From contig DYFB01000039.1 of the NCBI GenBank assembly GCA_020725405.1, forward strand, positions 44,428-108,427: a stretch of DNA of 64,000 nucleotides. Direction: 5' to 3'. Positions 11,888 to 63,980 of this stretch are shown in pieces. The translations under genes and the position numbers were made by a program. The stretch's first letter is position 1. The number at the start of each line of letters is the position of its first letter. The stretch comes from Symbiobacterium sp. Its GTDB lineage: Bacteria; Bacillota; Sulfobacillia; UBA995; UBA9673. The notes under the pieces are model-generated. The model was not told the DNA's origin and searched no databases. It saw only the letters and a list, made by a program, of their open reading frames with translations.

Positions 11888-11984
11888 TCGTCGTATCCCC
11901 CGTTTCATGTCCCGCGGCCCTCGACGGGGCGGTCGCCCCGCGGCGCCGCGAGAGCCATGTCCGATGAAGGCCAAGCAAAAACCG

Positions 11985-12175: not shown

Positions 12176-12289
12176 TCCTGAGACCTTTCTCGTGAGCCAA
12201 TACCTTCCCGGCCGTCTTCCAGGGACCTCCCGGACACCCCGTCCGGGCCCTTCGAGTCTGTCCGCCCGTCCTGCGGCTGGGTCACCGCG

Positions 12290-17898: not shown

Positions 17899-17960
17899 AT
17901 ACCTTCTCTCCTCCAGCCGGCTGAACGCGAGCGGACCCGCCTCGGCAAGAGCCGCCCCCC

Positions 17961-19100: not shown

Positions 19101-19293
19101 GGCTGACCTCCAGGTGAAAAGACCTAGCCTGCCTCTGACCGATGGGGCCGCCCCCTCACCAGGCCGTTCCGTTCGGGCCCGGTGCGGCCCGGCGGCCCCA
19201 CCAAGGGTCGATTGCCTCTACGCTACGCCGGCACGAAGTAGACCTCGTGTCGACCCCGTCGAACTCCACCGCGATGAGGTGGCCGGGGTCCTA

Positions 19294-19782: not shown

Positions 19783-19786
19783 CGGC

Positions 19787-20302
19787 CTACCCTCCCTGGA
19801 CCGGTTTCCAGTACTTGATGTCGGTGATGGCCCCTTCGCGCTCGCCGGGGCTCTTCCACACCGCCCGCACCCGCATGCCGATGTGGACGTCCTCCGGCCG
19901 GACCTCGCCCAGAAGGTGCAGTATCCCCATGCCGGGGGAAGCCCCGTCCACGTTGATGACCGCGGGCAACAGGGGCTCCTTCAGCCGGGCCACATCCCAC
20001 CGGACATAGCAGATGGAGAAGGTGTTCACCGTGCCCGTATCCTCTACGTACACCCATTCGTCGGTGGGGACGAAGCACTGCTCGCAGAACATCCGGGGCG
20101 GGAGCAGGATGCGGTCGCACCCCCCGCACCGGCGGGCGACGAGCCGGCCGTTCTTCAACTCGCGCAGATAGCGGCCGATGGCCACGCCGGCGTCCCAGGC
20201 GTACTCCGCCTTCAGCTTGTGCCTGACCGTGAGCACCCGCCCTTCCTCGATGTCCCGTGAACTCAGGGCGGTGCCGGGCCATTCCTTGATCTTGACGGTC
20301 AT
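19787..20302 (-). CDS. DUF35 OB-fold/Zn-ribbon protein (second copy)
   Basis: Start at ATG 20302 (MTVKIKEW...), with GGGGAGGGGGG upstream. CGGC...CEQC Zn ribbon plus OB fold. Confidence 0.8.
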   Translation of the reverse strand: MTVKIKEWPGTALSSRDIEEGRVLTVRHKLKAEYAWDAGVAIGRYLRELKNGRLVARRCGGCDRILLPPRMFCEQCFVPTDEWVYVEDTGTVNTFSICYVRWDVARLKEPLLPAVINVDGASPGMGILHLLGEVRPEDVHIGMRVRAVWKSPGEREGAITDIKYWKPVQGG

Positions 20303-20319
20303 GGTGTATCCCCCCTCCC

Positions 20320-21477: not shown

Positions 21478-21491
21478 CGTTCTCCCTCCCC

Positions 21492-22646: not shown

Positions 22647-22845
22647 TTCTCGCCACCTCCCAAGTACCCGCCGGCGGCGGGTTTCTCCGATCCCGGCCGG
22701 CCTGAGGCGGTTCCCACCCGTGAGAACATCTCCCCTTGCCGGCGTTCTACCTAACGGTAGGTTGAGCAGCCCCCAAATAAAAGCGGGTCGTCCGACCAGG
22801 ATCATCCAGGCTCCGGATTCCCATGACCCTGTGAGGGCTGGGCTC

Positions 22846-30360: not shown

Positions 30361-30554
30361 CGCCCTGTCGCCCTGGCCGTGAGCCCGCCGCGCCAATCCT
30401 GGCGCTCCCGCCCGAGGAGGCCCCGCTGTCTGAGCGGAAACCCACATCTGGGCTTCCATTCCACTTGCCAGGGAACTCTCCCGTTCGTAGCGAAAAGTGT
30501 CAGGAGTTGGCGCTTTGCCCCGGAGCAAGCCCTAATCCACTGGCGAGGGAGCCT

Positions 30555-33500
30555 ATGAGCGCGGTCCCGGCCATACCGGAAATCGACTTCTCGGCCGACC
30601 CCGAGGCCGTCCGCCTCGTGGCCGAGGCGCACCGCCTGAGCTATGGTCACCTGGCGAACCCCGGGTTCGCCGCCGAGGTGTCTCTCATCGACCCCCTGCC
30701 GCACCAGCGAATCGCGGTCTACGACCACATTCTGAACCAGCGGCCGCTTCGCTTCCTCCTGGCCGACGACGCCGGGGCCGGAAAGACTATCATGACCGGC
30801 CTCTACATCCGCGAGATGCTCAGCCGGCGTCTCCTGCGCCGCGTACTGGTAGTCCCGCCCGCCGGACTGGTCAGCAACTGGCGGCGCGAGCTGGCCACGC
30901 TCTTCGGCCTCCGCGCGCGGGTGATCACCGGGGCGGACGCCTCCCGCGCGAGCGGGTCCGGTGACTCGCCGAACCCCTTCCGCGGTCCGGGCTCCGACCT
31001 CGCCATCGTCAGCGTCGACACCCTGGCGGGGCAGAAGGTCTTCTCCCGTCTGGCCGAGCCGGGCGTGGAACCCTACGACCTCGTCGTCTTCGACGAGGCC
31101 CACAAGCTGGCCGCCCGCCAGGACCCGGACGGCCGCATCGTGAAGACCGACCGCTACAGCCTCGCGGAGGCGCTGGCGGGCGTGAAGACTAGCGAGCCCC
31201 GGTTCCGTCTCGATTGGCACGCCCGCAATCTCCTGCTCCTCACGGCCACGCCGCACATGGGCAAGGACTTCCCCTACTACTGCCTCTGGCGGCTCCTCGA
31301 GCCCGAGGCCCTGGCTACCTTCGAGGCCTTCTCGGCCTACCCGCCCGCCGAGCGACGCCATCATTTCCTCCGCCGGACCAAGGAGGAGATGGTGGACTTC
31401 TCCGGACGCCCGCTCTACCCGCCGCGGCACTGTGATACCGTGAGCTACGAGCTCACCCAGGGCGGGGAGAGCGAGCAAGAGCTCTACGACGAGACCACCA
31501 AGTACATCAGCAGTTACTACAACCGGGCGCGCCTCCTCAATCGCACGGCCGTACGCCTGGCCATGAGCGTCTTCCAGCGCCGTCTGGCGAGTTCCACCTA
31601 CGCCCTGATGCGATCGTTCGAGCGCCGCCTGGAGAAGCTCGAAGCCATCATGGACGACCTCAGGTCCGGGCGCCTCACCGCCGACCAACTGCTCATCCGG
31701 CAGCGCCGCCTGGACAGCACCCGTGATCTCCTGGACGAGGCCACGGCGGACGAAGAAGGAGTCGAGCACGGCGAGGAGAGCAGCGAGGCCGCTGAGCGGA
31801 ACCTCCTCGGCGGCGTGGTCGCCGTGAACCTGGCCGAGCTCGAGGTGGAGAAAGCCAAAGTCGCCGAGCTCCTCGACCTCGCCCGCCGCGTAGCGGCCAA
31901 GGGCAGCGGGGCCAAGTTCGAACGCCTCCTGGAGGTCCTGGGCGACGCGCGTTTCGCCGAAGAGAAGTTCCTCATTTTCACAGAGCACCGCGACACGATG
32001 GACTTCATCGCCCGCCGGTTGGAGGCCCTCGGCTATACCGGCCAGGTGGCCCGGATCCACGGCGGTCTCGACGCCGCCGAGCGGGACCGCCAGATCGAGT
32101 TCTTCCGCGCCCCGGCCGGCGCCGGAGGAGCCCGCTTCATGGTCTGCACCGACGCGGCTGGTGAGGGTATTAACCTTCAGTTCTGCTGGCTCATGGTCAA
32201 CTACGACATCCCGTGGAACCCGGCTCGCCTGGAGCAGCGCATGGGCCGCATCCATCGCTACCTTCAGACCCGCGAGGTCCGCATCATCAACCTCGTTGCC
32301 GGGAACACCCGCGAGGGCCGGGTGCTGAAGACTCTGCTCGACAAGCTCCAGCTCATCCGCGAGCGGCTCGGCTCGGACAAGGTCTTCGACGTGGTGGGGC
32401 GGCTCTTCGAGGGCGTCTCGCTCCGAGAGTACATGGAGATGGCCGTCACCGAAGCGGGGGTTGAGGCTGCCGCCAGGTTCATCGAAGGCCGACTCACCCC
32501 CGAGCAGGTCGAGGCCCTCGAGGCCCGTGAGCGCCTCCTCTACGGCGACCGCGGGGACGTCAAACGAGAACTGCCGGCTCTCAAAGACCGGCTCGAGCAG
32601 GAAGGACTGCGGCGGCTCCTTCCGGGCTACGTCCGGCACTTCGTGCTCGGGGCCGCGCCGGTGCTCGACCTCGCCCTCGAGGGCCCGGTGGACGGCCGCT
32701 TCACCTTCCGGCCCCTCCGCCCAGGCGCTCTGGACCCCTTCCTGCCGGCCTCGGAGGCCTACCCTCCCGACTGGCAGACACTCTTCACCATCGAGCGCCC
32801 GGCACGGGAGGAGAAGGTCGTCTTCCTGCGCCCCGGCGAGCCGTTCTTCGAGAGTCTGCGCGAGGCTGTGGCGTCCAGGCTGGAGGGGTCAGCCCTCAGG
32901 GGTGGGGTCTTCACCGACCCCCACGCCACGGGTCCCTACCTCTTCCACCTGGCCCTGGTCAGCGTGGTGCGCCGCCGTGACCCCGCCGATCCGGGCTTCG
33001 CGGAAGAACTTCTCCTGGAGGAGAGAGTCGTCGGCGTGCGCCAGGACGAGAGCGGCAACATGGAGCTGTGCCCCATCGAGCACCTGCTCCTCCTGCGCGG
33101 GGCGCCAGGGGCCTTGCCGGTGGGCCGTCTTGCGGCGGCGCCGCTGGAGTACCGGGAACAGGCCCGCCGATTCGCGATGACCCGGGTGGCGGAGGTCCGG
33201 GCCGAGGACATCCGGGAGAGGCTCCGGCTGGAACTGGCCCGGCGCCGAGAGGCGGTCCGCCAGGGCTACGACTACCGGCTGGCCGAGCTCGGCGAGAGCC
33301 GGGTCAGGCTGCGCAAGGCGGCCTCGGAGGGAGACCGCAGGGCCGCCGGCGAGCTCGAGGCCGTCAAGCGAGAGCAGGAGCGGGTCACGGCCGAGGCGCA
33401 GGCGGCCTCCCGGCGGTTGGAGCGGGAACCCGACCTCGTGGCGCCGGGCGAGGTGCGCTTCCTCGCCCACGCGCTGGTCCTGCCCAGCGCCGACAGCGAG

Positions 33501-33911
33501 GACCAGGCTCATCACGACGCCCGGGTGGAGGCTCTGGCCATGGAGTACGCCCGCCGCTACGAGGAGGACCTCGGCGCCGTGGTGAAGGACGTCTCCACAG
33601 CGGACCGGGCCCGCGAGGCCGGCCTCGGCGACCGGCCCGGCTTCGACCTCCTCTCCCGGCGCCCCGATGGGCAGGAGCTGTGCATCGAGGTCAAGGGCCG
33701 GGCCCACGCCGGTGAGGTCGAGGTGACCCGGAACGAGTGGGCCCAGGCCTGTAACCTGGGTCCGCGGTACTGGCTCTACGTGGTCTACGACTGCGCCACC
33801 CGCCAGCCGAGGTTGCGCCGGATCCAGGACCCCTTCTCCCGGCTCCTGGCCAGGACCAAGGGGAGCGTGCTCATCAGCGAAGCGGAAATAGCCGAAGCGG
33901 CGGAGGGATGA
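30555..33911 (+). CDS. SNF2-family helicase (DEAH box) with a C-terminal DUF3883-like PD-(D/E)xK nuclease-like domain (BrxHII-like; 'HmaA'-like)
   Basis: Start at ATG 30555 (GAGGGAG RBS); the ORF track's TTG at 30465 is less likely. Helicase motifs: I DDAGAGKT, II VVFDEAHKL, VI QRMGRIHRYLQ. C-terminal segment ...DGQELCIEVKG...YWLYVVYDC carries a D..E.K signature. Confidence 0.9.
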   Translation: MSAVPAIPEIDFSADPEAVRLVAEAHRLSYGHLANPGFAAEVSLIDPLPHQRIAVYDHILNQRPLRFLLADDAGAGKTIMTGLYIREMLSRRLLRRVLVVPPAGLVSNWRRELATLFGLRARVITGADASRASGSGDSPNPFRGPGSDLAIVSVDTLAGQKVFSRLAEPGVEPYDLVVFDEAHKLAARQDPDGRIVKTDRYSLAEALAGVKTSEPRFRLDWHARNLLLLTATPHMGKDFPYYCLWRLLEPEALATFEAFSAYPPAERRHHFLRRTKEEMVDFSGRPLYPPRHCDTVSYELTQGGESEQELYDETTKYISSYYNRARLLNRTAVRLAMSVFQRRLASSTYALMRSFERRLEKLEAIMDDLRSGRLTADQLLIRQRRLDSTRDLLDEATADEEGVEHGEESSEAAERNLLGGVVAVNLAELEVEKAKVAELLDLARRVAAKGSGAKFERLLEVLGDARFAEEKFLIFTEHRDTMDFIARRLEALGYTGQVARIHGGLDAAERDRQIEFFRAPAGAGGARFMVCTDAAGEGINLQFCWLMVNYDIPWNPARLEQRMGRIHRYLQTREVRIINLVAGNTREGRVLKTLLDKLQLIRERLGSDKVFDVVGRLFEGVSLREYMEMAVTEAGVEAAARFIEGRLTPEQVEALEARERLLYGDRGDVKRELPALKDRLEQEGLRRLLPGYVRHFVLGAAPVLDLALEGPVDGRFTFRPLRPGALDPFLPASEAYPPDWQTLFTIERPAREEKVVFLRPGEPFFESLREAVASRLEGSALRGGVFTDPHATGPYLFHLALVSVVRRRDPADPGFAEELLLEERVVGVRQDESGNMELCPIEHLLLLRGAPGALPVGRLAAAPLEYREQARRFAMTRVAEVRAEDIRERLRLELARRREAVRQGYDYRLAELGESRVRLRKAASEGDRRAAGELEAVKREQERVTAEAQAASRRLEREPDLVAPGEVRFLAHALVLPSADSEDQAHHDARVEALAMEYARRYEEDLGAVVKDVSTADRAREAGLGDRPGFDLLSRRPDGQELCIEVKGRAHAGEVEVTRNEWAQACNLGPRYWLYVVYDCATRQPRLRRIQDPFSRLLARTKGSVLISEAEIAEAAEG

Positions 33912-33918
33912 ACTCGCG

Positions 33919-36900
33919 GTGGAACCCAGCGGACCGACCGGACGGCGCCTCATCGAGGCGACCTTTCCGCTGAGGCAGGCGTCACTCGACTCCGTGCACG
34001 AGAAGAACGTCCGGCACGGGCATATCTCCACCCTGCACATCTGGCCGGCCCGGCGACCCCTGGCCGCCTGCCGGGCCGCGCTCATCGCCACTCTCCTGCC
34101 GGACCCCGGGACTTCCGAAGAGCGCCGGCGGCTCGCGGAGAGAATCGGCGGGAGGGTTGTCGAGCGTCGCGAGATGAAGAAGGTCGGCTCCCGGGAGGTC
34201 GAGACGGTCCGGGAGGAGACCGAGGGAGGACTCCTCCACTGGGGGCGGGAGAACAGCCCCGACCTCGACTGGTTCCGGGAGGAGATCCGCAAGGCCTACG
34301 GCGGCAGGGCTCCGAAGGTGCTGGACCCCTTCGCCGGTGGAGGGTCCATACCCCTCGAGGCCATGCGCCTCGGCTGCGAGGCCATCGCGATGGACATCAA
34401 CCCGGTGGCGTGGTTCATCCTGAAGTGCACGCTGGACTACCCCCACCGGATGGCCGGTAAGACCCTGCCTCTGCCCAAGGCGGCCCTCGAGTCGGCCGAG
34501 TTCATGGAGGCCTTCCTGCGAGGGACGGGGAGGGTCAAGAAGAAGGCGGACCTTGAGCGGCAGCTCCAAGGGGTGCAGCTCGGCCTCTTCCCGCCTCCCG
34601 AGGCCGACCTCGCTTGGCACGTGCGGGCGTGGGGTCGCTGGGTCTTCCAGCGGGCCAAGGTGGACCTCGAACGCTTCTACCCGGTGGTCGACGGGAAGCC
34701 CACGGTGGCCTACCTGTGGGCGAGGACGGTCAAGTGCAAGAACTGCCGCGGGGAGGTGCCTCTCCTCAAGACCAGGTGGCTCTGCCGTAAGCCGGATAAG
34801 AAGGTGCTCCTCACCCTGCGCACGGAGCCGGGCAAGGCCGAGGCCGACTTCGGCGTCCGGGTTCTCCGGCCTGACGAGGTGGTGAACGACGCCGACACCA
34901 AGGGTACCATGTCCAGGGCCGGGGCGACCTGCCCGCACTGCGGCGTCATCACGATGATGGAGGACCTCCGCCAGGAGGGTCGCGCCGGTCGCCTAGGGCA
35001 GCGGTTGGTGGCCGTGGTGGTCGAGGGGGCCCGTGGAAAGGAGTATCGACCTCCCACCGGTGAGGAGATACGGAGGGCATCGGAGGCTGGGGGCGCGGTC
35101 GCTTCGGCGTTCGACGGAGTACCCTTCGGGACCCCCGACGAACCGCTTCCGGCCAAGGAGGCGCTCGGCATCCGGGTCCCACTCTACGGCTTGGATACCT
35201 GGGGGAAGCTGTTCAACCCTCGCCAGCTGCTCGCCCTGGGAAGCTTCGTCCGCCATACTCGTGCGGCACGGGAGGCGATGCATGCTCACGAGTACTCCCC
35301 AGAGTGGGTCGAAGCGGTGGGGACCCTTCTAACCCTCGTAGTCGATAAACTCGCGGACTATAACGCGAGCCTAACGACATGGAACACGCCTGGGGAAAAG
35401 ATGAGGAACGTCTTTGTCCGGTTCGCCCTGCCCATAACGTGGGATTATGCTGAGCTTAACCCCCTTTCACAGTCTACCGGGAACTACCTAGCCTGCCTAG
35501 AGTGGGTGGCCCGGTCAACGGAGCATACCTCTCTAGCTGCGCTGAGGTGTCCCTTCCCGCAAAGCGTTCTCGGCTCGGCTATCCGCCTACCTGCCGAGCA
35601 GGGGACGGTGGACCTCGTGGTGACCGACCCGCCGTACTACGACGCCATACCCTACTCGGATACGATGGACTTCTTCTACGTCTGGCTACGCCGGAGCACG
35701 CACGGGCTGGCTCCGGACGTCGATGCGGCCTTTTCCGAAGAGCTCGGCCCGAAGTGGGACGGGCCTCGAGAGGAAGGAGAGCTTATCGACGACGATAGTC
35801 GCTTCGGTGGTGACCCCCAAAGGTCCCGGGCCGCCTACGAAGCCGGCATGCTTAAGGCGTTCCAGGAGTGCTACCGAGTCCTCCGCCCCGAGGGGCGGCT
35901 CGTGGTCGTCTTCGCCCAGAAGAACCCTGCGGCGTGGGAAGCCCTCGTTTCGGCCATGCTTCGAGCGGGCTTCGTGGTCACCGCAAGTTGGCCGGTGCAA
36001 ACCGAGAGGGAGACCCGCACTAGAGCACTGTCCGGAGCTGCCCTCTCCTCGTCAGTCTGGCTTGTCTGCCGCAAGCGCCCGCCGAGCGCCCGACCCGGGT
36101 GGGATAACCAGGTCCTCGAAGAGACGCGCGCACGCCTCTGGGGCGTGCGGGCTGACGAGGTCGGCGAGTGGGTGTATCGCCCCACCCTCCGCGAGTTCTG
36201 GGATGCCGGGATTCGCGGCCCCGATTTCGTCTGGGCGGCCACCGGTCCGGCGCTCGAGGCCTACAGCCGCTACCCGGCGGTGAAGAAGGCCGACCGGCCC
36301 GATGAACTCCTGACCGTGAGCGAGTTCCTCCGCCACGTGCGTCGCCTGGTGGTGGATTTCGTCGTCGGCCGCGTGCTCACCCCGGAAGGAGAGCCGTCGG
36401 CCGCGCCCCCGCTAGACGACGTAACGACCTACTACCTCCTTCACCGGCAGGCTTTCCAGTTTTCCGAGACCCCCATCGGCGCGGTCATCCTCTATTCCGT
36501 GTCGTGCGGGCTCTCGGACCGCGACCTCGTGGAGGAGTACGACCTCCTTTCCCGCAGCGGCGGGAGCACCGCGCCCGCCGACCTGGAAGAGGACGGTTCG
36601 GATTCCGGGGAGGACGCCCAAGAAGAGGGAGAGGAAGAGGAAACCGCCGGCGCTTCCGGCGGCACCTCAAAGGTCCGGCTCAGGCCCTGGCACCAACGCC
36701 GGGGCAAGCGCATGGGTTACGAGAACGGCGGCCGGCCGGTGCCGCTGATAGACCAGGTCCATCGGCTGATGCATCTCTGGAAGACCGGCGACGTGCGCGC
36801 GGTCAACCACTACATCGGCGAGCGGGGTCTGCAATCAAGCGGCGTGTTCGCTAGGCTCCTCCAGGCCCTCATCGAGCTCTCGCCCGTCGGAGACGAGGAG

Positions 36901-37023
36901 CGGACGCTCCTGGAGAGCATCAGCAACCACCTGGCCGGGCTCCGGCTGGCTCGCCGGCCCGACCAGCTCTTTGACAGCCAGCAGGCTCCTGAAGAGCCCT
37001 TTCGGGGAGGCGTAAAGTCATGA
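33919..37023 (+). CDS. DUF1156-type DNA methyltransferase (N6-adenine/N4-cytosine class; PglXI-like; 'HmaB'-like)
   Basis: GTG start 8 nt after the helicase stop. N-terminal DUF1156 signature (IEATFPL...HISTLHIWPARRP). Motif I VLDPFAGGGSIPLEA. Cys4 Zn-ribbon insertion (CKNCRG...CPHCG). Motif IV VVTDPPYYD about 440 aa after motif I. Confidence 0.9.
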   Translation: MEPSGPTGRRLIEATFPLRQASLDSVHEKNVRHGHISTLHIWPARRPLAACRAALIATLLPDPGTSEERRRLAERIGGRVVERREMKKVGSREVETVREETEGGLLHWGRENSPDLDWFREEIRKAYGGRAPKVLDPFAGGGSIPLEAMRLGCEAIAMDINPVAWFILKCTLDYPHRMAGKTLPLPKAALESAEFMEAFLRGTGRVKKKADLERQLQGVQLGLFPPPEADLAWHVRAWGRWVFQRAKVDLERFYPVVDGKPTVAYLWARTVKCKNCRGEVPLLKTRWLCRKPDKKVLLTLRTEPGKAEADFGVRVLRPDEVVNDADTKGTMSRAGATCPHCGVITMMEDLRQEGRAGRLGQRLVAVVVEGARGKEYRPPTGEEIRRASEAGGAVASAFDGVPFGTPDEPLPAKEALGIRVPLYGLDTWGKLFNPRQLLALGSFVRHTRAAREAMHAHEYSPEWVEAVGTLLTLVVDKLADYNASLTTWNTPGEKMRNVFVRFALPITWDYAELNPLSQSTGNYLACLEWVARSTEHTSLAALRCPFPQSVLGSAIRLPAEQGTVDLVVTDPPYYDAIPYSDTMDFFYVWLRRSTHGLAPDVDAAFSEELGPKWDGPREEGELIDDDSRFGGDPQRSRAAYEAGMLKAFQECYRVLRPEGRLVVVFAQKNPAAWEALVSAMLRAGFVVTASWPVQTERETRTRALSGAALSSSVWLVCRKRPPSARPGWDNQVLEETRARLWGVRADEVGEWVYRPTLREFWDAGIRGPDFVWAATGPALEAYSRYPAVKKADRPDELLTVSEFLRHVRRLVVDFVVGRVLTPEGEPSAAPPLDDVTTYYLLHRQAFQFSETPIGAVILYSVSCGLSDRDLVEEYDLLSRSGGSTAPADLEEDGSDSGEDAQEEGEEEETAGASGGTSKVRLRPWHQRRGKRMGYENGGRPVPLIDQVHRLMHLWKTGDVRAVNHYIGERGLQSSGVFARLLQALIELSPVGDEERTLLESISNHLAGLRLARRPDQLFDSQQAPEEPFRGGVKS

Positions 37024-40000
37024 TTTCAACCCCGACCTTCACTCCGTGGCACAAGGTGGTGCGGCTCCGCGACGACCTCCGGTCCGGGGAACTTCCCCTG
37101 GCCATCTTCGCCGCCGATCTCTACGCGGTCCGGATGGCGACGGCCCCACCGGTCTACCGGGACCCCCGGGAGTTCTTCTCGCTGACCTACCCGGCCCACA
37201 ACCTCCGCAGGCTGGCCAAGGAGGTCATGGACCGGCTCGCCGGCCGGAGCGAGCGAGCCGTCCGCCAACTCGAGCTCACCTACGGAGGCGGCAAGACCCA
37301 CGCCCTCATCACCCTCTACCACCTCGTGAACGACCCAGAGACGCTTCCGGAGGACCTTCCGGCCGTACGCGAGTTCATCGTGCACGCTGGGCAGCGCCCG
37401 CCCAAGGCCCGCGTGGCCGTGCTGGCCTTCGACAAGCTGGACGTCGAGAAGGGCATGGAGGTGCCCGGCCCCGACGGCCGGAAGCGGTGGCTCCGCCATC
37501 CCTGGAGCGTCCTCGCCTACCAGCTCGCCGGCTCGGAGGGTCTGCGCCTCCTCCACGCCGCGGACCGGGACGAAGAGCGCGAGAGCCCCCCGGCGGAGAA
37601 CCTCCTCACCGAGCTCCTCGCCATCCCCGCCCGCGCAGACCTGGCCACTCTCATCCTCATCGACGAGGTCCTGATGTACGCCCGCGAGAAGGTGGCCCTG
37701 GACCCCACCTGGAGGGCGCGGCTCGTGGACTTCTGCCAGTACCTCACCCAGGCCACCACGGCCGTTCCGCGCTGCGCCATCGTCGCTTCACTCCTGGCCA
37801 CCGACCCGCGCAAGTACGACTCCCTGGGCCGCGAGCTGGCGAAGGACCTCTCCGACATCTTCCGCCGGGAGAAGGAGGAGAGCATCCAGCCCGTCCTCAA
37901 GGAGGACGTGGCCGAGATCCTCCGCCGTCGTTTCTTCACGCCGGAGTCGACCCGCGACCACGAGCTCTTCCGGCCGCACGTCATAGCGGCTCTACAGGGC
38001 ATCCAGGCCCTGGACGAGGCCACCGCTCGTCAGGGCCCTGAGGCCGAGGAGAGGTACCTGGCCAGCTACCCCTTCCATCCAGACCTCACCGACGTCTTCT
38101 ACACCAAGTGGACCAACCTCGAGGGCTTCCAGCGCACCCGGGGTATCCTCCGCACCTTCGCCCTCGCCCTGCGCGAGGCGGAACGCTGGGACACCTCGCC
38201 CCTGGTGGCCGCCAACGTCTTCCTCAGCGAGCCCGGCCGGACCGATCTCTCCCCGGCGGCCCGGGAGCTCACCGGGGTAGCCGCCACCGAGGAGTACGAG
38301 GGTAAGAGGCAGGAGTGGACCGCCATCCTTGAAGGGGAACTGGCCAAGGCACGAGCCATACAGGAAGAGTGCCCGGCCCTTCGTCACCGCGAGGTGGAGC
38401 AGGCCGTCTTCGCGACCTTCCTCCACTCCCAGCCGGCGACCCAGAAGGCCCTCACCCGGGAACTCATGGTTCTGGTCGGAGCCACCTGCCCGGACCGGAT
38501 CGAGCTCGGAAAGGCCCTCCGGCGATGGGCGGAGGTCTCCTGGTTCCTCGACGAGGCCGGCCTCCAAGACGTGGAGAACGGTCCACAGGGAGAGCGATTC
38601 CTGCCCCGAACGTGGCGTCTGGGCTCCCGGCCTAACCTGACCCAGATGCACCACGACGCCTGCGGCCGCGTATCGGCGGAGTTGGTCGAGGCCCGGCTGC
38701 TTGAGGACATCGCCAGGACCAAGGACCTTACGGCCGGTGCCGGTAAGGCCGGGGCCAGGGTTCACACCCTGCCGGAGGCGCCCAACGACATCTCCGACGA
38801 CTGGGAGTTCCACTATGCGGTGCTCGGGCCGAAGGCCGCGTCCGAGCCGGGTAAGCCCAGTGCCGAGGCCGTCCGCTTTCTCACCGAGACCTCCGGCCCG
38901 CAAAAGCCCCGGGTCAACCAGAACGCCGTCGTCCTGGCCGTTCCGGCCCGGGAGGGGCTCGAGATCGCTCGGAGCCGCGTCCGTGACTACCTTGGGTGGG
39001 AGGAAGTGGCCCAGCAGCTCAAGGAGCAGAAGGTCCACGACCCCCTGCGCACGGCGGCCCTGAACGCCCACCTCGATGCAAGCCGCAAGGCCATCCCGGC
39101 CGCCGTCCAGCAGGCCTACTGCATCGTCGTCACCATCGGACGAGACGGCGGACCCGAGGCCTTCAGAGTCACCGTCGGCGACCGGCCGCTGTTCGAGGTT
39201 ATCAAGGCCGACGAGCGCTCGCGCATCCGCGAGTCGGCTGTGGCGGCCGGCGCCCTCCTACCCGGCGGCCCGTACGACCTGTGGGAGGAAGGCGAGACCT
39301 CGCGCCGGATGCGGGACCTCGTCGGGTCCTTCGCCCAGTTTCCACGCCTGCCGAAGATGCTCAACTCCCAGGCCATCCTGGACACCCTCCTGGCTGGCTG
39401 TCAGAGCGGCCTCTTCGTGATGCGGCTGACCCGGCCCGACCGCTCGGTCCGCACCTTCTGGCGGGAGAGGCCGGACGATGTGGCCGTGAAGGATCCGAGC
39501 CTCGAGGTGGTTCTGCCCCAGGGGGCCGCTCTAACGGAGCTGGCCCCGTCTCTTCTCGAGCCCGGCGCTCTGCCGGGACTGTGGCCGCAAGAGGGGAGGT
39601 TCAGGGTGGGCGACCTTTACGCCTACTTCGCCGGCGGCCACTCCGTGGCCGTTTCGCGCGGGACGTACGAGGAGACCGTCGTCATCCCCGCGGCCCCGCG
39701 GGAGGTCGTGGACGTGGCCGTGCGCGCCGCGGTAAGGGAGGCCAAGGTGTGGCTCCTCGCCGCCGGCGGGGCGGCCAGCGTCTGCGAGGAGGACATCCCG
39801 CCGGGGCTGCTCACCGAGAACGCCATCCTCCAGGGGCCGCCGGAGCCTCTGTCGCCCACGTCCATCCTGCCGGACGCCCTGCCGGCGGCCTGGCCGGGGC
39901 CACCGCCCGGCTCGGTCGAACGCCTTACCAGCGCCCTGGCCATCCTAGACGCCGCCTCGGCCAGAGCCGGGCTGACCCTGCCTTGGGCGGTGGTCCGCCG

Positions 40001-40346
40001 GGCCATCGACGGGGCCCTTCGGACCCGGCTCCTCGAGCTGGCCGACGGCTCGGGCCCTTGGCCGTGCGAGCTAACGGCGGCGAAGGACGTCAGGCTGAGG
40101 GAGAGGAAGGCTGGCGGCGGCCCCGTGCCACCTGAATGGCCCAAAGTGGCCCAGGCTGACCTCGAACCGAACGAGCTCCAGGAGCTGGCGGACCAGACCG
40201 CCACCCTCCTCAAGGTCGCGGGCCGCGAGAAGGTCAAGTACCACGTCCGCATCGAGCTCTCCGAGACCGATGCGGAGACCCTCGAACAAGTCGCGAACGT
40301 GCTCCTTGCCGTGAGCCCGCGCTTGCGGCTGAAAGAGAGTGGTTAG
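37020..40346 (+). CDS. DUF499-like P-loop ATPase (BrxC/PglY-like; 'HmaC'-like)
   Basis: ATGA overlap with the methylase stop. N-terminal TPWHKVVRLRDDL...FAADLYAV...FFSLTYPAHNLRRL...LELTYGGGKTHALITLYHL (Walker-A-like GGGKTH). 1108 aa, with size and architecture like BrxC. Confidence 0.85.
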   Translation: MISTPTFTPWHKVVRLRDDLRSGELPLAIFAADLYAVRMATAPPVYRDPREFFSLTYPAHNLRRLAKEVMDRLAGRSERAVRQLELTYGGGKTHALITLYHLVNDPETLPEDLPAVREFIVHAGQRPPKARVAVLAFDKLDVEKGMEVPGPDGRKRWLRHPWSVLAYQLAGSEGLRLLHAADRDEERESPPAENLLTELLAIPARADLATLILIDEVLMYAREKVALDPTWRARLVDFCQYLTQATTAVPRCAIVASLLATDPRKYDSLGRELAKDLSDIFRREKEESIQPVLKEDVAEILRRRFFTPESTRDHELFRPHVIAALQGIQALDEATARQGPEAEERYLASYPFHPDLTDVFYTKWTNLEGFQRTRGILRTFALALREAERWDTSPLVAANVFLSEPGRTDLSPAARELTGVAATEEYEGKRQEWTAILEGELAKARAIQEECPALRHREVEQAVFATFLHSQPATQKALTRELMVLVGATCPDRIELGKALRRWAEVSWFLDEAGLQDVENGPQGERFLPRTWRLGSRPNLTQMHHDACGRVSAELVEARLLEDIARTKDLTAGAGKAGARVHTLPEAPNDISDDWEFHYAVLGPKAASEPGKPSAEAVRFLTETSGPQKPRVNQNAVVLAVPAREGLEIARSRVRDYLGWEEVAQQLKEQKVHDPLRTAALNAHLDASRKAIPAAVQQAYCIVVTIGRDGGPEAFRVTVGDRPLFEVIKADERSRIRESAVAAGALLPGGPYDLWEEGETSRRMRDLVGSFAQFPRLPKMLNSQAILDTLLAGCQSGLFVMRLTRPDRSVRTFWRERPDDVAVKDPSLEVVLPQGAALTELAPSLLEPGALPGLWPQEGRFRVGDLYAYFAGGHSVAVSRGTYEETVVIPAAPREVVDVAVRAAVREAKVWLLAAGGAASVCEEDIPPGLLTENAILQGPPEPLSPTSILPDALPAAWPGPPPGSVERLTSALAILDAASARAGLTLPWAVVRRAIDGALRTRLLELADGSGPWPCELTAAKDVRLRERKAGGGPVPPEWPKVAQADLEPNELQELADQTATLLKVAGREKVKYHVRIELSETDAETLEQVANVLLAVSPRLRLKESG

Positions 40347-49299: not shown

Positions 49300-49420
49300 C
49301 CTTCAAGTGCTCAACCAAAGGCACGTGGCAGAGTAGATGTTCCCGCGTTAAGTGCCAGAGGATGGGAGGTCGCCTCTGGACGAAAGGCGGGCCGCGACCG
49401 GTCCGCCTGCGGTGGGGCAT
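49300..49420 (+). ncRNA. THF (tetrahydrofolate) riboswitch upstream of folT
   Basis: GGCAGAGUAGAUGUUCCCGCGUUAAGUGCCAGAGGAUGGGAGG... matches the conserved THF-I core (AGAGUAG...CGCGUUAAGUGCC). Lies directly 5' of an ECF folate S-component gene. Confidence 0.7.
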
Positions 49421-49503
49421 CGCTTCCGCTGTCACATCAAAGACGCCTCCGTCTCTGGTGTGGCCTGCCGGCCTGCCTGAAGAGAAGGGAGGTGTCGTTG
49501 TTC

Positions 49504-59136: not shown

Positions 59137-59415
59137 TCACCCACGCCCGAGAAGCAGGAAGACCCCGATGGCGACGAAGAGGCCGCCGGCCGCGAGCCGG
59201 ATGTAGCGCAGAGGCACGACCTGGGTGATGGCCGACCCGACCAGCACCCCGAGGAGGGCCGAGCCCGCGAGGGCCAGGGCCGCGCCCAGAAAGACCGACA
59301 GCGGCGAGCGGGTCTGGGCGGCCAGCACCATGGTGGTGAGCTGGGTCTTATCCCCCAGTTCAGCGAGAAAGATGAGGGCAAAGGTAGTCAGCAGGACCTT
59401 AATGTCCACTCCCAC
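59137..59415 (-). CDS. UPF0016 (GDT1/TMEM165/MneA-like) family membrane protein, single half-size unit
   Basis: 92 aa with the E-x-G-D-(KR)-(TS) motif (AELGDKTQL) diagnostic of UPF0016. Only one repeat is present. Confidence 0.65.
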   Translation of the reverse strand: MGVDIKVLLTTFALIFLAELGDKTQLTTMVLAAQTRSPLSVFLGAALALAGSALLGVLVGSAITQVVPLRYIRLAAGGLFVAIGVFLLLGRG

Positions 59416-60157
59416 GCCTCCTCCAGCGGGCGGGTCCGGCCGGATGGGGTCGGACCCGCCGGGCGGACCTTCTCTTCCTGAGCCGGCGGCTGAGATCGAG
59501 CGTCACCCGAAGGGTCCCCCGGGGGTCGAGGAAGACCTCATCCGCATCCTCCAGGCTGAGGCCCCTCCGCCGCACGGCCCGCCTCAGATCCTCGATGGTC
59601 AGCCCCGCCTTCCGGAGCCCCGCGGGGTCGGGCTCGCCATCCAGGAGGAGGGTCGTCGATGCCTCCCGACCGAGGAAGCGAGGGGTGACCGGGGCGGCTT
59701 CGCGCTTAGGGATGGCCGAGAGCAGGCCGTCGGCCTCTAGGGTGGCCAGCTCGATGTCGGAGACGTCGACGAACCCCTTCTCCCTAAGCCTACCGGCCAG
59801 CTCTTCTGGGCTGAGCCTCGCCCGGCGCAGGTTGTCCTCGAGAACGCGCCCTCCTTTGACCACCACGATGGATTCTCCTTCGAGAACCTTCTCGACCCGG
59901 GCGCTCTGGAGGCTGGCGTAGGCCAGGACGATCTGGAGCAGGGCCAGAGAGACCACGGCGATGACCGCCGGGGCCACGGAGAGCTGCGGGTCGGCCAGGG
60001 GAGCCCCGACGACTTCGGCGATGACCAGGACGATTACGAAGTCCAGCGCCTCCATGTCCCCCAGGGTGCGCTTGCCCATCAGGCGAAAGAGGACCAGCGC
60101 CAGGGCGTAGAGACCGACAGTCTTCCCGACGATGAGAAGGGCGACCCCGAGGTCCAC
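59399..60157 (-). CDS. DUF421 (YetF-like) membrane protein
   Basis: 252 aa. N-terminal 3 TM plus a cytoplasmic DUF421-like domain. 17-nt overlap with the downstream UPF0016 gene. Confidence 0.7.
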   Translation of the reverse strand: MDLGVALLIVGKTVGLYALALVLFRLMGKRTLGDMEALDFVIVLVIAEVVGAPLADPQLSVAPAVIAVVSLALLQIVLAYASLQSARVEKVLEGESIVVVKGGRVLEDNLRRARLSPEELAGRLREKGFVDVSDIELATLEADGLLSAIPKREAAPVTPRFLGREASTTLLLDGEPDPAGLRKAGLTIEDLRRAVRRRGLSLEDADEVFLDPRGTLRVTLDLSRRLRKRRSARRVRPHPAGPARWRRRGSGH

Positions 60158-60161: not shown

Positions 60162-61502
60162 CTAGAGCCGCGGCGGCGGTCGGAAGTGCTGGTCCAGAGC
60201 GTCTTCGAGGTCGGGGCGCCCGATCTCCTGCAGCTCGTAGCTCACCCGGACCGCCGGGCGGCGGATGTCCACGACCCGCCGGAGGTCGATGGGGGTGGCG
60301 ATGACGACGAGCTCGGCCGGGGTCCTGTCGACGGTAGCCGCGAGGTCTTCCATCTGCTGTTTCCCGTAGCCCATGGCCGGGAGGAGTGGACCGACCTCGT
60401 AGCGGGCGAAGGTATCCCGGATGCTGCCGAGCGCGTAGGGACGGGGGTCGACCAGCTCAGCCGCCCCGAACCTCCTCGCCGCGATGACGCCCGCTCCGTA
60501 GGTCATCCCCCCGTGGGTGAGGGTGGGGCCGTCCTCGATGACGAGGACTCGTTTGCCCCGCACGGCGGCCGGGTCCTCGACGAAGATGGGCGAAGCCGCC
60601 TCGACGACGGTCGCCCGGGGGTTCAGGCGGCGGGCGCTCTCCCGGACCGCGTCGACCCCGTCAGGGCCGGCGGTGTCAACCTTGTTGATGACCACGATGT
60701 CCGCCATCCGGAGATTGGCCTCCCCCGGATGGTAGGCCGTCTCGTGGCCCGGCCGGTGGGGGTCGACCAGGACGATGTGGACGTCGGGCCGGTAGAAGGG
60801 AAGGTCGTTGTTCCCGCCGTCCCAGAGGATGACGTCGGCCTCGCCGGCGGCCTCCTCCAGAACGGCTCCGTAGTCAACCCCGGCGTAGACGACGACGCCC
60901 CGTCGGATGTGGGGCTCGTACTCCTCCCGTTCCTCGATGGTCGTTCGATGCGCGTCAAGGTCCTCATATGAAGAGAAGCGCTGGACGGCCTGGGCGGCGA
61001 GGTCGCCGTAGGGCATCGGGTGGCGCACGACCACGAGCCGGTAGCCCCGGGCCTGAAGGAGGGAGACGACCCGCCGCGTCGTCTGGCTCTTGCCCACCCC
61101 GGTCCGCACGGCGGTCACGGCCACCACCGGACGGGGGGCCTGGAGCATGGTGGTGCCCGGGCCCATGAGCCAGAAGTCCAGCCCGAGGGCCAGGCACTGC
61201 GAGGCCCGGTGCATCACGTAGGTGTGGGAGACGTCACTGTAGGCGAAGACCGCCCGCTCGGCGCCCCTCTCCTGAACGACCCGCTCGAGCTCCTCCTCGG
61301 GGAAGATGGGAATTCCCCGGGGGTAGCGGGGTCCGGCGAGGCCGGACGGGTAGACCCGGCCGGCGATGTCGGGAATCTGGGTCGCCGTGAAGGCGACGAC
61401 GTCGTATTCCGGGTTGTCCCGGAAGAAGACGTTGAAGTTATGGAAGTCACGGCCGGCGGCGCCCATGATGACGACCCGCGTCGGACCGTGTCTCACCACC
61501 AT
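60162..61502 (-). CDS. P-loop protein of the family annotated as cyclic 2,3-diphosphoglycerate synthetase (cDPGS-like), paralogue 2
   Basis: 446 aa. N-terminal IMGAAGRDFHNFN, P-loop AVTAVRTGVGKSQTTR, and DGGNND / GDGPTLTHGGM motifs. About 60% identical to the upstream paralogue. Confidence 0.6.
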   Translation of the reverse strand: MVVRHGPTRVVIMGAAGRDFHNFNVFFRDNPEYDVVAFTATQIPDIAGRVYPSGLAGPRYPRGIPIFPEEELERVVQERGAERAVFAYSDVSHTYVMHRASQCLALGLDFWLMGPGTTMLQAPRPVVAVTAVRTGVGKSQTTRRVVSLLQARGYRLVVVRHPMPYGDLAAQAVQRFSSYEDLDAHRTTIEEREEYEPHIRRGVVVYAGVDYGAVLEEAAGEADVILWDGGNNDLPFYRPDVHIVLVDPHRPGHETAYHPGEANLRMADIVVINKVDTAGPDGVDAVRESARRLNPRATVVEAASPIFVEDPAAVRGKRVLVIEDGPTLTHGGMTYGAGVIAARRFGAAELVDPRPYALGSIRDTFARYEVGPLLPAMGYGKQQMEDLAATVDRTPAELVVIATPIDLRRVVDIRRPAVRVSYELQEIGRPDLEDALDQHFRPPPRL

Positions 61503-61617
61503 AGCCCCGCCTCCGGGGCTAGTATTGGCGGCCGCTTCCTACCCGTATGCAGGACAGCCGGGCGAGGGGGTAGGGGCGGCCCCGGACCGGGGCCCGTCAG
61601 CCCCGGACCGGGGCCCG

Positions 61618-62937
61618 TCAGCCCAGGACCGGAGCCAGCGCCTCGGCCAGGGTCGGCCGCCCCCTCTCCTGGAGGTCGTAGCGGACACGGACGGCCGGCT
61701 TCGAGAGCTTGACCACACGCCGGAGGTCGATGGGGGTGCCGATGACGACCACCTCGGCCGGGGTGCGTTCGATGGTCTCCTCGAGCTCGCGGACCTGCTC
61801 GGCCCCGTAACCCATGGCCGGGAGCACCGGCCCCATGTGCGGGTATTTGGCGAACGTGGTCGCGATGGACCCAACGGCGTAGGGCCGGGGGTCGACGGCC
61901 ACCGCGCCGGCCCGGCAGGCGGCGATGGTGCCGGCCCCGTAGGCCATCTCGCCGTGGGTCAGGGTCGGTCCGTCCTCGACGACAAGTACGGTCCGTCCCC
62001 GGAGAGCCTCCGCGTCCCCGGATACGGTGAGGGGTGAGTCGGCTTCGATGACCACGGCCCGCGGGTTAACCGCCGCCACGTTCCGACGGACCGCCTCGAC
62101 GTCCTCGGGGCGGGCCGTATCCACCTTGTTGATGACCACGATGTCGGCCAGGCGGAGGTTGGTCTCCCCGGGGTGGTAGAGAAGCTCGTGCCCTGGACGG
62201 TGCGGATCGGCCACGGTTATGTAGACGTCGGCCCGGTAGAAGGCGAAGTCGTTGTTGCCCCCGTCCCAGAGGATGACGTCGGCCTCCTTCTCGGCCCGGC
62301 GGAGGATGGCCTCGTAGTCGACCCCTGCGAAGACGATGCTGCCCCGGTCGAGGTGCGGCTCGTACTCCTCGCGCTCCTCGATGGTGCAGTCGTGACGGTC
62401 GAGATCCTCATAGACGGCGAAACGCTGGACGGCCTGTTTCACGAGGTCTCCGTACGGCATCGGATGCCGGACGACGGCCACCTGCTTTCCGGCGTCCTTG
62501 AGTATCTCGCTCACCCGGCGGGTGGTCTGGCTCTTCCCCGCGCCCGTGCGAACAGCGCAGACCGCGACAACGGGCTTGGTCGACCGCAGCATCGTGGCCT
62601 CCGGCCCCTGGAGAACGAAGTCGGCTCCGGCCGCCAGGGCCGTCGAGGCCTTGTGCATGACGTAGTCGTGGGGCACGTCGCTGTAAGCGAAGACCACCTG
62701 GTCCACGCCAAGCTCCTTCACCAGCCTGGGCAGCTCGTCCTCGGGATGGATGGGTATACCGCGCGGGTAGCCCTCCCCGGCAAGCTCGGCCGGGTAGACC
62801 CGGCCCTCGATGTTCGGAATCTGGGTGGCGGTGAAGGCCACCACCTCGTAGGCGGGGTTACCCCGGTAGAAGGTGTTGAAGTTGTGGAAGTCCCGCCCGG
62901 CCGCGCCCATGATGAGGACGCGCGTCCTCCTGGTCAC
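61618..62937 (-). CDS. cDPGS-like P-loop protein, paralogue 1
   Basis: 439 aa with the same motif set (IMGAAGRDFHNFN, AVCAVRTGAGKSQTTR). Tandem duplicate of 60162..61502. Confidence 0.6.
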   Translation of the reverse strand: MTRRTRVLIMGAAGRDFHNFNTFYRGNPAYEVVAFTATQIPNIEGRVYPAELAGEGYPRGIPIHPEDELPRLVKELGVDQVVFAYSDVPHDYVMHKASTALAAGADFVLQGPEATMLRSTKPVVAVCAVRTGAGKSQTTRRVSEILKDAGKQVAVVRHPMPYGDLVKQAVQRFAVYEDLDRHDCTIEEREEYEPHLDRGSIVFAGVDYEAILRRAEKEADVILWDGGNNDFAFYRADVYITVADPHRPGHELLYHPGETNLRLADIVVINKVDTARPEDVEAVRRNVAAVNPRAVVIEADSPLTVSGDAEALRGRTVLVVEDGPTLTHGEMAYGAGTIAACRAGAVAVDPRPYAVGSIATTFAKYPHMGPVLPAMGYGAEQVRELEETIERTPAEVVVIGTPIDLRRVVKLSKPAVRVRYDLQERGRPTLAEALAPVLG

Positions 62938-63044
62938 TTGAGCTCCTCCCCCTTGCCTGGCTTATGTCGTCTGGGTGCTTTCCCGGGTCCGCACCGCTTC
63001 GCGGTTTCGCCCGTCCCGGTCGGGCCCGCCCTCACATGACCACC

Positions 63045-63980
63045 TCACATAACCAGGGCCATGATGGCCTTCTGCGTGTGCAGACGGTTCTCAGCCTGGT
63101 CGAAAACGACGGAGTTCGGACCATCTATCACTTCGTCGGTGACCTCTTCGCCCCGGTGGGCCGGCAGGCAGTGCATGAAAAGGGTCCCGGGGCGGCCGGT
63201 GGCCCGCATCAGAGCCTGGTTGACCTGGTAGGGCGCGAGGTCGCGGACGCGCTGTTCGCGCTCGGCCTCCTGTCCCATGCTGGTCCAGGTGTCGGTATAG
63301 ATGACGTCGGCGCCCTCGACGGCTTCGAGCGGGTTGTGGGTGAGGTCGATCCGGGCTCCCGTCAGGGCCGCGTCGGCCCGGGCCGTCTGGACGATACCGG
63401 GGTCGGGCTCGCGGCCGGGGGGCGTGGCGACGACCACGTGCATACCGGTCTTGGCTCCGGCGAACATGAGCGAGTGGGCCACGTTGTTGCCGTCCCCCAC
63501 GTAAACGAGCTTCACCCCGGCCAGGCGCCCGAGCTTCTCGTAGACCGTGTAGACGTCGGTCAGGCCCTGGCACGGATGAAGAAGGTCGGTGAGCCCGTTG
63601 ATGACGGGAACGCTGGCCGCGGCAGCCAGGTCGACAACATCCTGGTGCCTGAAGGTGCGGATCATGATACCGTCGAGGTACCGGGAGAGGACGCTCCCCG
63701 TGTCGTAGATGGTCTCTCCGCGTCCGAGCTGGAGGTCGCCGGTGCCCATGTAGAGGGCGTACCCTCCGAGCTGCCACACGCCGACCTCGAAGGAGACCCG
63801 GGTCCGGGTCGAAGGCTTGGCGAAGATCATCCCCAGGGTCTTACCGACGAGAGGCCTGTCCCGCTCGCCGCTCTTCCACCTCAGCTTCATCTGCTCGGTC
63901 GTCTTGAGGATCTGCCAGGTCTCCTCGACCGAAAGGTCGTGGATAGAGACGAGATCCTTGCCCTTCATACTGACGGCCAT
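63045..63980 (-). CDS. argF: Ornithine carbamoyltransferase
   Basis: STRTR carbamoyl-phosphate motif, HPCQ and HCLP motifs. 311 aa. Confidence 0.9.
   Translation of the reverse strand: MAVSMKGKDLVSIHDLSVEETWQILKTTEQMKLRWKSGERDRPLVGKTLGMIFAKPSTRTRVSFEVGVWQLGGYALYMGTGDLQLGRGETIYDTGSVLSRYLDGIMIRTFRHQDVVDLAAAASVPVINGLTDLLHPCQGLTDVYTVYEKLGRLAGVKLVYVGDGNNVAHSLMFAGAKTGMHVVVATPPGREPDPGIVQTARADAALTGARIDLTHNPLEAVEGADVIYTDTWTSMGQEAEREQRVRDLAPYQVNQALMRATGRPGTLFMHCLPAHRGEEVTDEVIDGPNSVVFDQAENRLHTQKAIMALVM

Follow-up and report, generated by a model that had tools for sequence, protein, structure and literature searches.

Two adjoining genes near the end of a 64-kb stretch of DNA from a Bacillota metagenome-assembled genome (contig DYFB01000039.1, positions 44,428 to 108,427; hereafter the window) encode proteins of 439 and 446 amino acids (aa), here called paralog A and paralog B, which stand beside a gene for ornithine carbamoyltransferase (OTC; argF or arcB). 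Both genes very probably encode arginine synthetases of the ArcE family and constitute the distal part of an arcC-arcB-arcE1-arcE2 unit that directly follows genes for the oxidative degradation of ornithine. A preliminary description of this DNA had already noticed the tandem pair and the OTC, which scores 427 bits on TIGR00658, and in this it was right. Paralogs A and B are 68% identical over 431 aa (BLASTP 580 bits, far above chance) rather than the approximately 60% first estimated, and have in common the motifs IMGAAGRDFHNFN, G(A/V)GKSQTTR, RHPMPYG, TIEEREEYEP, WDGGNND, NKVD and EDGPTLTHG. The first of these, and the second as GxGKSQTTR, had been read correctly in both proteins, while the last had been given as GDGPTLTHG. 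In paralog A IMGAAGRDFHNFN occupies aa 9-21, WDGGNND aa 224-230 and EDGPTLTHG aa 321-329; in paralog B the latter two lie at aa 227-233 and aa 323-331. The pair had also been placed 43 bp upstream of argF. The genes do adjoin, but argF and both paralogs lie on the minus strand, so that the paralogs are downstream of argF, in the order argF, A, B, beyond a gap of 107 nucleotides (nt). The earliest possible start of paralog A is a GTG at 62937 with GGAGG before it; in a related contig (L086) the gap between argF and A is 44 nt.

The function of these proteins had been regarded as unknown, yet biochemical and genetic work published in 2024 characterised a member of their family (Michimori, Yokooji and Atomi, PNAS 2024, PMC11032458; follow-up in PMC13260591). 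TK2200, or ArcE, of the archaeon Thermococcus kodakarensis interconverts arginine + ADP + Pi and citrulline + ATP + NH3 in both directions, with an equilibrium constant (Keq) of ~10 at 80 C and a preference for ADP, GDP supporting only 8% of that activity (PMC11032458). It rejects agmatine, D-arginine, guanidine and arginine dipeptides, uses free ammonia only, and is a tetramer with sigmoidal (allosteric) ADP kinetics, while knockout of arcE abolishes the formation of ornithine and proline from arginine as well as citrulline-dependent growth (PMC11032458). The same authors described TK2200 as a 'putative GTPase' of ~440 aa with low similarity to cyclic 2,3-diphosphoglycerate synthetase (cDPGS), whose homologs lie near arcB or arcC and are widespread in Bacillota, Chloroflexi and other phyla (PMC11032458); arcE is conserved throughout the Thermococcales (PMC13260591).

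A search with a profile of three archaeal homologs recovered Thermococcales proteins to which both paralogs align end to end. A protein of Thermococcus sp. 21S9 (P0340), which stands for 201 sequences (many Thermococcus species and Palaeococcus) clustered at 90% identity, shares 66% of its residues with paralog A over 433 aa and 62% with paralog B over 439 aa. Judged by this full-length homology to Thermococcales orthologs of the characterised enzyme, both proteins are members of the ArcE family, and it seems that these bacterial proteins would catalyse the TK2200 reaction too. The phosphotransfer or ligase role in arginine/ornithine or carbamoyl metabolism suggested in the preliminary description fits well with the reversible, ATP-dependent ligation of citrulline and NH3 known from the family (PMC11032458). 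The profile search that it had proposed yielded only a partial match to CobW/HypB/UreG (PF02492) in Pfam for both paralogs, and nothing informative for either in NCBIfam release 20 or PADLOC; neither Pfam (2025 copy) nor NCBIfam release 20 (June 2026) contains a model covering the ArcE family. Assignment to a different, characterised family, one of the outcomes named in the preliminary description as refuting its view, was nonetheless achieved, through the Thermococcales orthologs and the literature. Exact-sequence look-ups of paralog A and of a further family member (P0001) found nothing on record, and a literature search under 'COG2403' found nothing.

The family is large, with at least 8000 candidates in each protein search, named either 'predicted GTPase' or 'cyclic 2,3-diphosphoglycerate synthase'. 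The latter label, which the preliminary description had correctly reported as the public annotation, is applied by NCBI even to Thermococcus members. The gene name has met a clash of its own: after 2024 'arcE' turns up in papers for a TM7x arginine transporter or within unrelated words, and a 2025 paper gives the name to a Nanosynbacter arginine/ornithine antiporter. When one genome per species was scanned, at least 599 loci proved to encode proteins 61-71% identical to paralog A, in Chloroflexota, Bacillota, Acidobacteriota, Bacteroidota, Calditrichota, Thermotogota, Bathyarchaeia, Thermoplasmatota and others. Such conservation across domains, with 60-70% identity between bacteria and archaea, is unusual.

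The AlphaFold2 (AF2) monomer model has a pLDDT (predicted local distance difference test) of 93.4 and predicts a P-loop nucleoside triphosphatase fold with an LpxK-like core and low similarity to cDPGS, as expected of an ArcE protein. CTP synthase and dethiobiotin synthetase are present among its structural neighbours. In cDPGS the substrate site of one protomer is completed by its partner's N-terminal domain. The N-terminal motifs GAAGRDFHNFN, FTATQIP and AYSD are invariant in the ArcE family and, by analogy, likely form a putative arginine/citrulline site across a dimer interface.

No mechanism was proposed for ArcE in PMC11032458. In CTP synthase (its amidoligase domain) and dethiobiotin synthetase a carbonyl or carbamate oxygen is phosphorylated and a nitrogen nucleophile then attacks, which offers a model for the conversion of citrulline and NH3 to arginine, although sequence similarity to these enzymes is undetectable beyond the P-loop. 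By this analogy the most economical chemistry would be one in which, in the citrulline direction, ATP phosphorylates the ureido oxygen to give an O-phospho-isourea intermediate, from which NH3 then displaces phosphate. In the catabolic direction phosphate would attack the guanidinium carbon, NH3 would leave and the phosphoryl group would pass to ADP.

The positions of the genes, motifs and other features are collected in Table 1. A search for terminator-like or promoter-like (sigma-70-like) sites between 58 and 64 kb of the window found none, which is compatible with co-transcription of the genes, and no Rfam element was found near the locus. Both paralogs have a good, properly spaced Shine-Dalgarno sequence (GGAGG). 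The 21-nt tandem repeat between the paralogs has the unit GCCCCGGACCGGGGCCCGTCA; its first copy holds the TGA stop of paralog A, so that the spacer repeats this stop and the codons preceding it. Contig L081, 99% identical, is shorter here by 42 nt (two repeat copies), the BLASTN segments overlapping by 58 nt in the window and 16 nt in L081, and copy number therefore differs between strains. Downstream of arcE2, the DUF421 and GDT1/UPF0016 (PF01169) genes keep their place in four related contigs (L081, L083, L086 and L087); the DUF421 protein, which may lie outside the pathway, has no match in NCBIfam. An ECF (extracytoplasmic function) sigma factor and zf-HC2 anti-sigma pair comes after these two genes.

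Table 1. Genes, motifs and other features of the window
Feature	Positions	Strand	Size	Remarks
argF/arcB, ornithine carbamoyltransferase	63045..63980	minus	311 aa	open reading frame with Pfam and NCBIfam matches
spacer argF-arcE1	62938..63044	minus	107 nt	GGAGG 7 nt before the GTG of paralog A
paralog A (arcE1)	61618..62937	minus	439 aa	GTG start; predicted ArcE-family arginine synthetase (ATP-forming arginine deiminase)
paralog A, P-loop GAGKSQTTR	62518-62544	minus	aa 132-140
paralog A, NKVD	62119-62130	minus	aa 270-273
21-nt tandem repeat	61579..61636	none	2.8 copies	94% matches (TRF)
spacer arcE1-arcE2	61503..61617	minus	115 nt	GGAGG 9 nt before the ATG of paralog B
paralog B (arcE2)	60162..61502	minus	446 aa	ATG start; ArcE family by homology, own B-type clade
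paralog B, P-loop GVGKSQTTR	61074-61100	minus	aa 135-143
paralog B, NKVD	60675-60686	minus	aa 273-276
DUF421/YetF-like membrane protein	59399..60157	minus	252 aa	4 nt downstream of arcE2
GDT1/UPF0016-family small membrane protein	59137..59415	minus	92 aa	overlaps the end of the DUF421 gene
THF (tetrahydrofolate) riboswitch	49327-49433	plus		74.1 bits
Hma-type candidate defence system	30465-40346	plus	three genes
short-chain acyl-CoA module	16048-22805	minus
glmS ribozyme	12013-12179	minus		92.7 bits; directly upstream of the glmS-like gene
glmS-like gene	10037-12046

Because only 20 nt separate the argF start from the end of the window, near-identical contigs were used for the DNA beyond it. 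The context was reached through homologs of the pair (P0121, P0123, P0136 and P0036) and the OTC, and a flank of ~10 kb was examined beside the 64-kb window. One of these contigs (L081, GCA_040754035.1) has 98.9-99.2% nucleotide identity to the window, and another (L084, GCA_020725165.1) encodes an OTC identical to that of the window. Directly upstream of argF in L081, L084 and L085 lies a carbamate kinase gene (TIGR00746, 414 bits against a cut-off of 358). Further upstream and in the same orientation are genes for an AmmeMemoRadiSam radical-SAM enzyme, a LigB/AMMECR1 fusion, an Orr-like racemase (266 bits; cut-off 480), a GlmL-related ornithine-degradation Or-4 protein (564 bits; cut-off 600), both subunits of D-ornithine 4,5-aminomutase (OraE, NF040743, 1213 bits against a cut-off of 800; OraS, by Pfam OAM_alpha) and the 2-amino-4-oxopentanoate thiolase OrtB (531 bits for a truncated product; cut-off 550). 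The unit thus reads ort/ora/orr - (AmmeMemoRadiSam) - arcC - arcB - arcE1 - arcE2, with a full gene set for the proposed 'arginine synthetase pathway' (ArcE-ArcB-ArcC). The arcC-arcB-arcE-arcE order was seen in L081, L083, L084, L086 and L087, and the upstream ornithine gene order is repeated in the more diverged L083, L086 and L087, whose A-type and B-type proteins are 75-81% and 77-78% identical to those of the window. A related Bacillota genome (L052) has OraE, then carbamate kinase, OTC and a single ArcE.

As a side observation, the AmmeMemoRadiSam pair (the LigB/Memo-AMMECR1 fusion, TIGR04335, with a radical-SAM partner, TIGR04337, 330 bits) separates the ornithine racemase gene from that for carbamate kinase in each of five contigs (L084 6193-8893, L081 3673-6373, L083 3555-6475, L086 2795-5424, L087 3146-6874). 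Such constancy of place within an arginine/ornithine fermentation operon may hint at what the pair does. A gene for cob(I)alamin adenosyltransferase is also found near the locus, beside the B12 enzyme and the GlmL-like reactivase.

That the arc genes are appended to an ornithine degradation set indicates catabolic use, and we infer that the reversible ArcE reaction runs in the catabolic direction here. ArcE would convert L-arginine, ADP and Pi to L-citrulline, ATP and NH3; OTC would then form ornithine and carbamoyl phosphate from citrulline and Pi; carbamate kinase would turn carbamoyl phosphate and ADP into ATP, CO2 and NH3; and the Orr, OraSE, Ord and OrtAB proteins would ferment ornithine to acetyl-CoA and alanine. 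Such a pathway would yield two substrate-level ATP per arginine ahead of ornithine use, against one for the classical deiminase pathway. The classical arcA-arcB-arcC route likewise takes arginine to ornithine, CO2 and two NH3, draws its ATP from carbamate kinase, and has the OTC and carbamate kinase genes in its operon. However, its first step is hydrolytic, catalysed by ArcA of the amidinotransferase fold, whereas the first step here would fall to an unrelated P-loop enzyme that saves the energy as a second ATP. Genes for arginine deiminase (arcA), argG and argH were not seen among the larger open reading frames of the window that were scanned, nor arcA in the flanks, although 64 kb says little about a genome.

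The gene set upstream resembles the ortAB, ord, oraSE and orr cluster of Clostridium (Acetoanaerobium) sticklandii, with OrtB, OraS, OraE, the GlmL-related protein and the Orr-like racemase directly upstream of the arc genes in the same orientation. It differs in continuing into arcC-arcB-arcE-arcE, with the AmmeMemoRadiSam pair between; ord and ortA fall outside the DNA examined. Compared with T. kodakarensis, the likeness lies in full-length homology, in the LpxK-like P-loop kinase and distant cDPGS fold neighbours, in the misleading 'GTPase' and 'cDPG synthase' labels, and in OTC and carbamate kinase as genomic partners. In that archaeon, however, arcE is single copy and arcE, arcB and arcC are scattered (TK2200, TK0871 and TK2158), whereas the window pair, from an uncultured high-GC Bacillota lineage, consists of two diverged tandem copies in a contiguous unit joined to the ornithine oxidative-degradation operon. 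This join is a feature not described in the ArcE papers (PMC11032458, PMC13260591).

Conservation of the neighbourhood with OTC, named in the preliminary description as a test, was borne out in a sample of 80 of the at least 599 species-level loci, in which open reading frames within 5 kb were clustered, named with NCBIfam and recounted with tblastn. Carbamate kinase occurs in 16 of the 80, being downstream in 15, mostly directly (11-206 nt; maximum 959 nt), and upstream in L052; OTC is adjacent in six, and one or both of the two enzymes accompany 18 loci. An arginine-tRNA ligase gene (argS) is directly upstream on the same strand in a further type of locus (20/80, Chloroflexota), while L-glutamate gamma-semialdehyde (P5C) dehydrogenase is upstream in four, with carbamate kinase downstream. 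Counting any arginine-related neighbour gives 38 of the 80 loci. The link of the ArcE family to arginine metabolism across phyla is real.

Two of these arrangements deserve mention in their own right. In the argS-linked loci (L002, L005, L006, L007, L011, L013, L024, L032 and 12 others), all from Chloroflexota/Anaerolineae-type genomes, the ArcE gene follows 26-562 nt downstream of argS (TIGR00456, 395 bits) and no OTC or carbamate kinase is nearby, which hints at a different, possibly arginine-supplying, role in Chloroflexota. In L027, L071, L072 and L079 (Neomarinimicrobiota, Nitrospina and Fidelibacterota genomes) P5C dehydrogenase, ArcE and carbamate kinase lie in this order on one strand, which suggests arginine catabolism leading to glutamate.

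If the family itself is known, what is new here is the conserved duplication. Two-copy loci were absent from all 80 species-level loci, while tandem A-B pairs were verified in L081, L083, L086 and L087, and orthologs of paralog B (P0121-P0137) are 77-81% identical to it and lie on contigs equal in length to those that carry the A-type orthologs. In a neighbour-joining tree the A-type and B-type proteins form separate, non-sister clades, each spanning several genomes, the deep nodes carrying no support values; A and B are each about as close to Chloroflexota homologs (70-72%) as to one another (68%). Comparisons between genomes give dN/dS values of 0.15-0.22 (A), 0.15-0.20 (B) and 0.07-0.19 (OTC), and both copies are apparently maintained as active enzymes, to judge by their sequences. 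A pseudogenised or catalytically dead B copy is rejected, all conserved motifs being kept at a dN/dS of ~0.17. Most B-type proteins (P0122-P0137; L087 10418-12046) carry a Pro/Gly-rich low-complexity C-terminal tail of 18-41 residues by alignment, longer in the longest members and bringing total length up to 570 aa; A-type proteins have no such tail. It is missing in P0124, in the B copy of the window (446 aa) and in the 99%-identical counterpart of the latter (P0121), and is therefore dispensable.

It may be asked whether the two paralogs have diverged in function, one acting on another guanidino or ureido substrate (agmatine, homoarginine or canavanine), running in the opposite, biosynthetic direction, or serving as a non-equivalent subunit of an obligate hetero-tetramer. 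We consider this unlikely, though some points speak for it: the two clades are separate and about equally near to Chloroflexota homologs, the tail marks most B-type proteins, and tandem retention of both copies under purifying selection in at least four diverged genomes argues against simple redundancy. Moreover, the tetrameric state of TK2200 and its allosteric response to ADP make mixed oligomers physically plausible. Yet when the A and B clades are set against 309 other members, no more than three substitutions mark them at sites where at least 90% of those members agree. All three are conservative (A->L, V->L and I->V/L), and there is thus no sign of an altered active site. TK2200 refuses agmatine, D-arginine, guanidine and arginine dipeptides (PMC11032458), the deep nodes of the tree are without support values, and the tail is absent in the B copy of the window itself. 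We see the paralogs as probable isozymes or subunits of a mixed tetramer rather than as enzymes with different substrates, the sequences mildly favouring isozymes with different regulation, or a mixed tetramer, over a divergent direction or substrate. A stronger form, in which the pair is not redundant at all and forms an obligate A/B hetero-tetramer or splits its roles (ADP-gated catabolism in one copy, arginine-sparing or biosynthetic activity or another guanidino substrate in the other), appears doubtful. If true, it would imply a regulated, fully substrate-level-phosphorylating fermentation of arginine to acetate with up to three ATP per arginine, the sum of ArcE, carbamate kinase and the acetyl-CoA from ornithine.

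It is improbable, but conceivable, that the enzymes work here mainly in the anabolic direction, with citrulline, ATP and NH3 giving arginine and ArcE replacing or supplementing argininosuccinate synthetase and lyase. ArcE catalysis can run either way and, given a supply of citrulline, sustains arginine formation in vivo, and such a route has been proposed for bacteria with carbamoyl-phosphate synthetase and OTC but without ArgG/ArgH, for example Syntrophomonas wolfei (PMC11032458). The gene position directly behind argS in a quarter of the sampled loci (20/80) would fit arginine supply, and the adjacent OTC scores best on general argF models of general or anabolic type (428.9 bits on NF001986; 426.8 on TIGR00658, cut-off 280.85; OTCace_N and OTCace matched in Pfam), so that taken alone it gives no sign of catabolism. 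On the other side, the flanking genes for carbamate kinase and for ornithine racemase, aminomutase and thiolase are a degradative set conserved in four genomes, and the equilibrium lies on the deimination side with a Keq of ~10 (PMC11032458).

Besides the type of the OTC, several points weigh against the interpretation of the pair as catabolic ArcE enzymes. Identity was measured against congeneric Thermococcus orthologs in place of TK2200 itself, T. kodakarensis being absent from the 15 members listed of the 201 in the P0340 cluster. Function would be transferred across domains at 62-66% identity, and the literature searched contains no assayed bacterial ArcE. The interpretation likewise supplies no reason for keeping two copies. 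Finally, NK(V/I)D is the classical guanine-specificity motif of P-loop GTPases and is near-invariant across the ArcE family. Its retention although TK2200 prefers ADP would put the nucleotide preference of the bacterial copies in question.

This same motif, present in both paralogs, might point to a P-loop GTPase chaperone of the G3E type (CobW/UreG/HypB/MeaB-like), serving for example the B12-dependent ornithine aminomutase encoded upstream; a cob(I)alamin adenosyltransferase is encoded nearby, as are the B12 enzyme and a GlmL-like reactivase. Both paralogs match PF02492 with 24-26 bits (cut-off 20.7), and there are weak, sub-cut-off MeaB matches on the P-loop. However, the PF02492 match covers profile positions 112-180 of 180 only, that is ~65 residues of 440 aa; the CobW model TIGR02475 gives 16 bits against a cut-off of 332; and neither translation has a GCxCC, CxCC or CPH-type metal motif, their few cysteines being isolated. 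The recurrent neighbours are carbamate kinase, OTC and argS and not B12 enzymes, with OraE in one of 80 loci against 18 for carbamate kinase and/or OTC, and the full-length identity of 62-66% is to a Thermococcus ArcE family with a demonstrated enzymatic function. A B12-chaperone role is accordingly rejected as highly improbable, outweighed by the full-length ArcE identity and the neighbours across phyla.

The cDPGS label, carried by many members in NCBI, had been doubted from the start, and rightly. The paralogs do share with cDPGS (PDB 8ORK, 8ORU, 9SXB), at superfamily level, an N-terminal alpha/beta domain, an LpxK-like P-loop kinase domain and ATP-dependent activation of an oxygen nucleophile, but they are not cDPGS: identity is 16%, and substrate, taxonomic range and gene neighbours differ. 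True cDPGS are the sole relatives by sequence in the PDB, and weak ones: matches score 22-33 bits (PDB 9sxb 30.6 with the single sequence and 32.6 with the family profile; M. fervidus 8ork/8oru 21.9) and span only ~110 residues of the P-loop domain. Lys145 and Arg146 of the M. fervidus enzyme hydrogen-bond 2,3-diphosphoglycerate inside the Walker A loop (PDB 8ORK/8ORU). With GK(S/T) as anchor (G-T-G-K-R-V-G-K-T against A-V-R-T-G-A-G-K-S; the flanking alignment is weak, the anchor unambiguous), this Lys-Arg pair aligns to Thr131-Gly132 of paralog A, both invariant in 61 family members. Thermococcus proteins bear the same name although their family includes the arginine synthetase defined by experiment, and the genes around the pair belong to arginine and ornithine metabolism. 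While cDPGS is expected in hyperthermophilic methanogens, together with 2-phosphoglycerate kinase, the host here is a Bacillota genome, no gene resembling that kinase appears in the Pfam tables of the locus, and the family extends over many phyla of bacteria and archaea. Taken together, the evidence from sequence, residues and context excludes a true cDPGS with near certainty.

Elsewhere in the window, two CoA-transferase subunits, an acyl-CoA dehydrogenase and two thiolase-like proteins make up a module for short-chain acyl-CoA of the butyrate/acetoacetate type, as would suit an organism that lives by fermenting amino acids. The candidate defence system consists of an SNF2 helicase with NOV_C (HmaA, 507 bits), a DUF1156 DNA methylase (HmaB, 377 bits) and a DUF499 ATPase (HmaC, 256 bits). 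A glmS ribozyme and a THF riboswitch are also present (Table 1).

In summary, arginine synthetase has been recognised only since 2024, with work on it confined to one archaeon, and this locus provides a clean bacterial example in which ArcE, OTC, carbamate kinase and ornithine fermentation genes stand in one transcriptional orientation, making an ATP-conserving catabolic role directly testable. The literature searched contains neither the conserved tandem paralogs nor the physical fusion with an ornithine fermentation operon, nor the continuing mis-annotation of a family without a Pfam or NCBIfam model, and the locus exposes the persistence of that error ('cyclic 2,3-diphosphoglycerate synthase' or 'GTPase'). 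The conserved duplication, itself a small new observation, is a natural system for studying the regulation of a reversible enzyme. As the ArcE family is very large and 60-70% identical between bacteria and archaea, the arginine-dependent ATP yields of many anaerobes have probably been underestimated.

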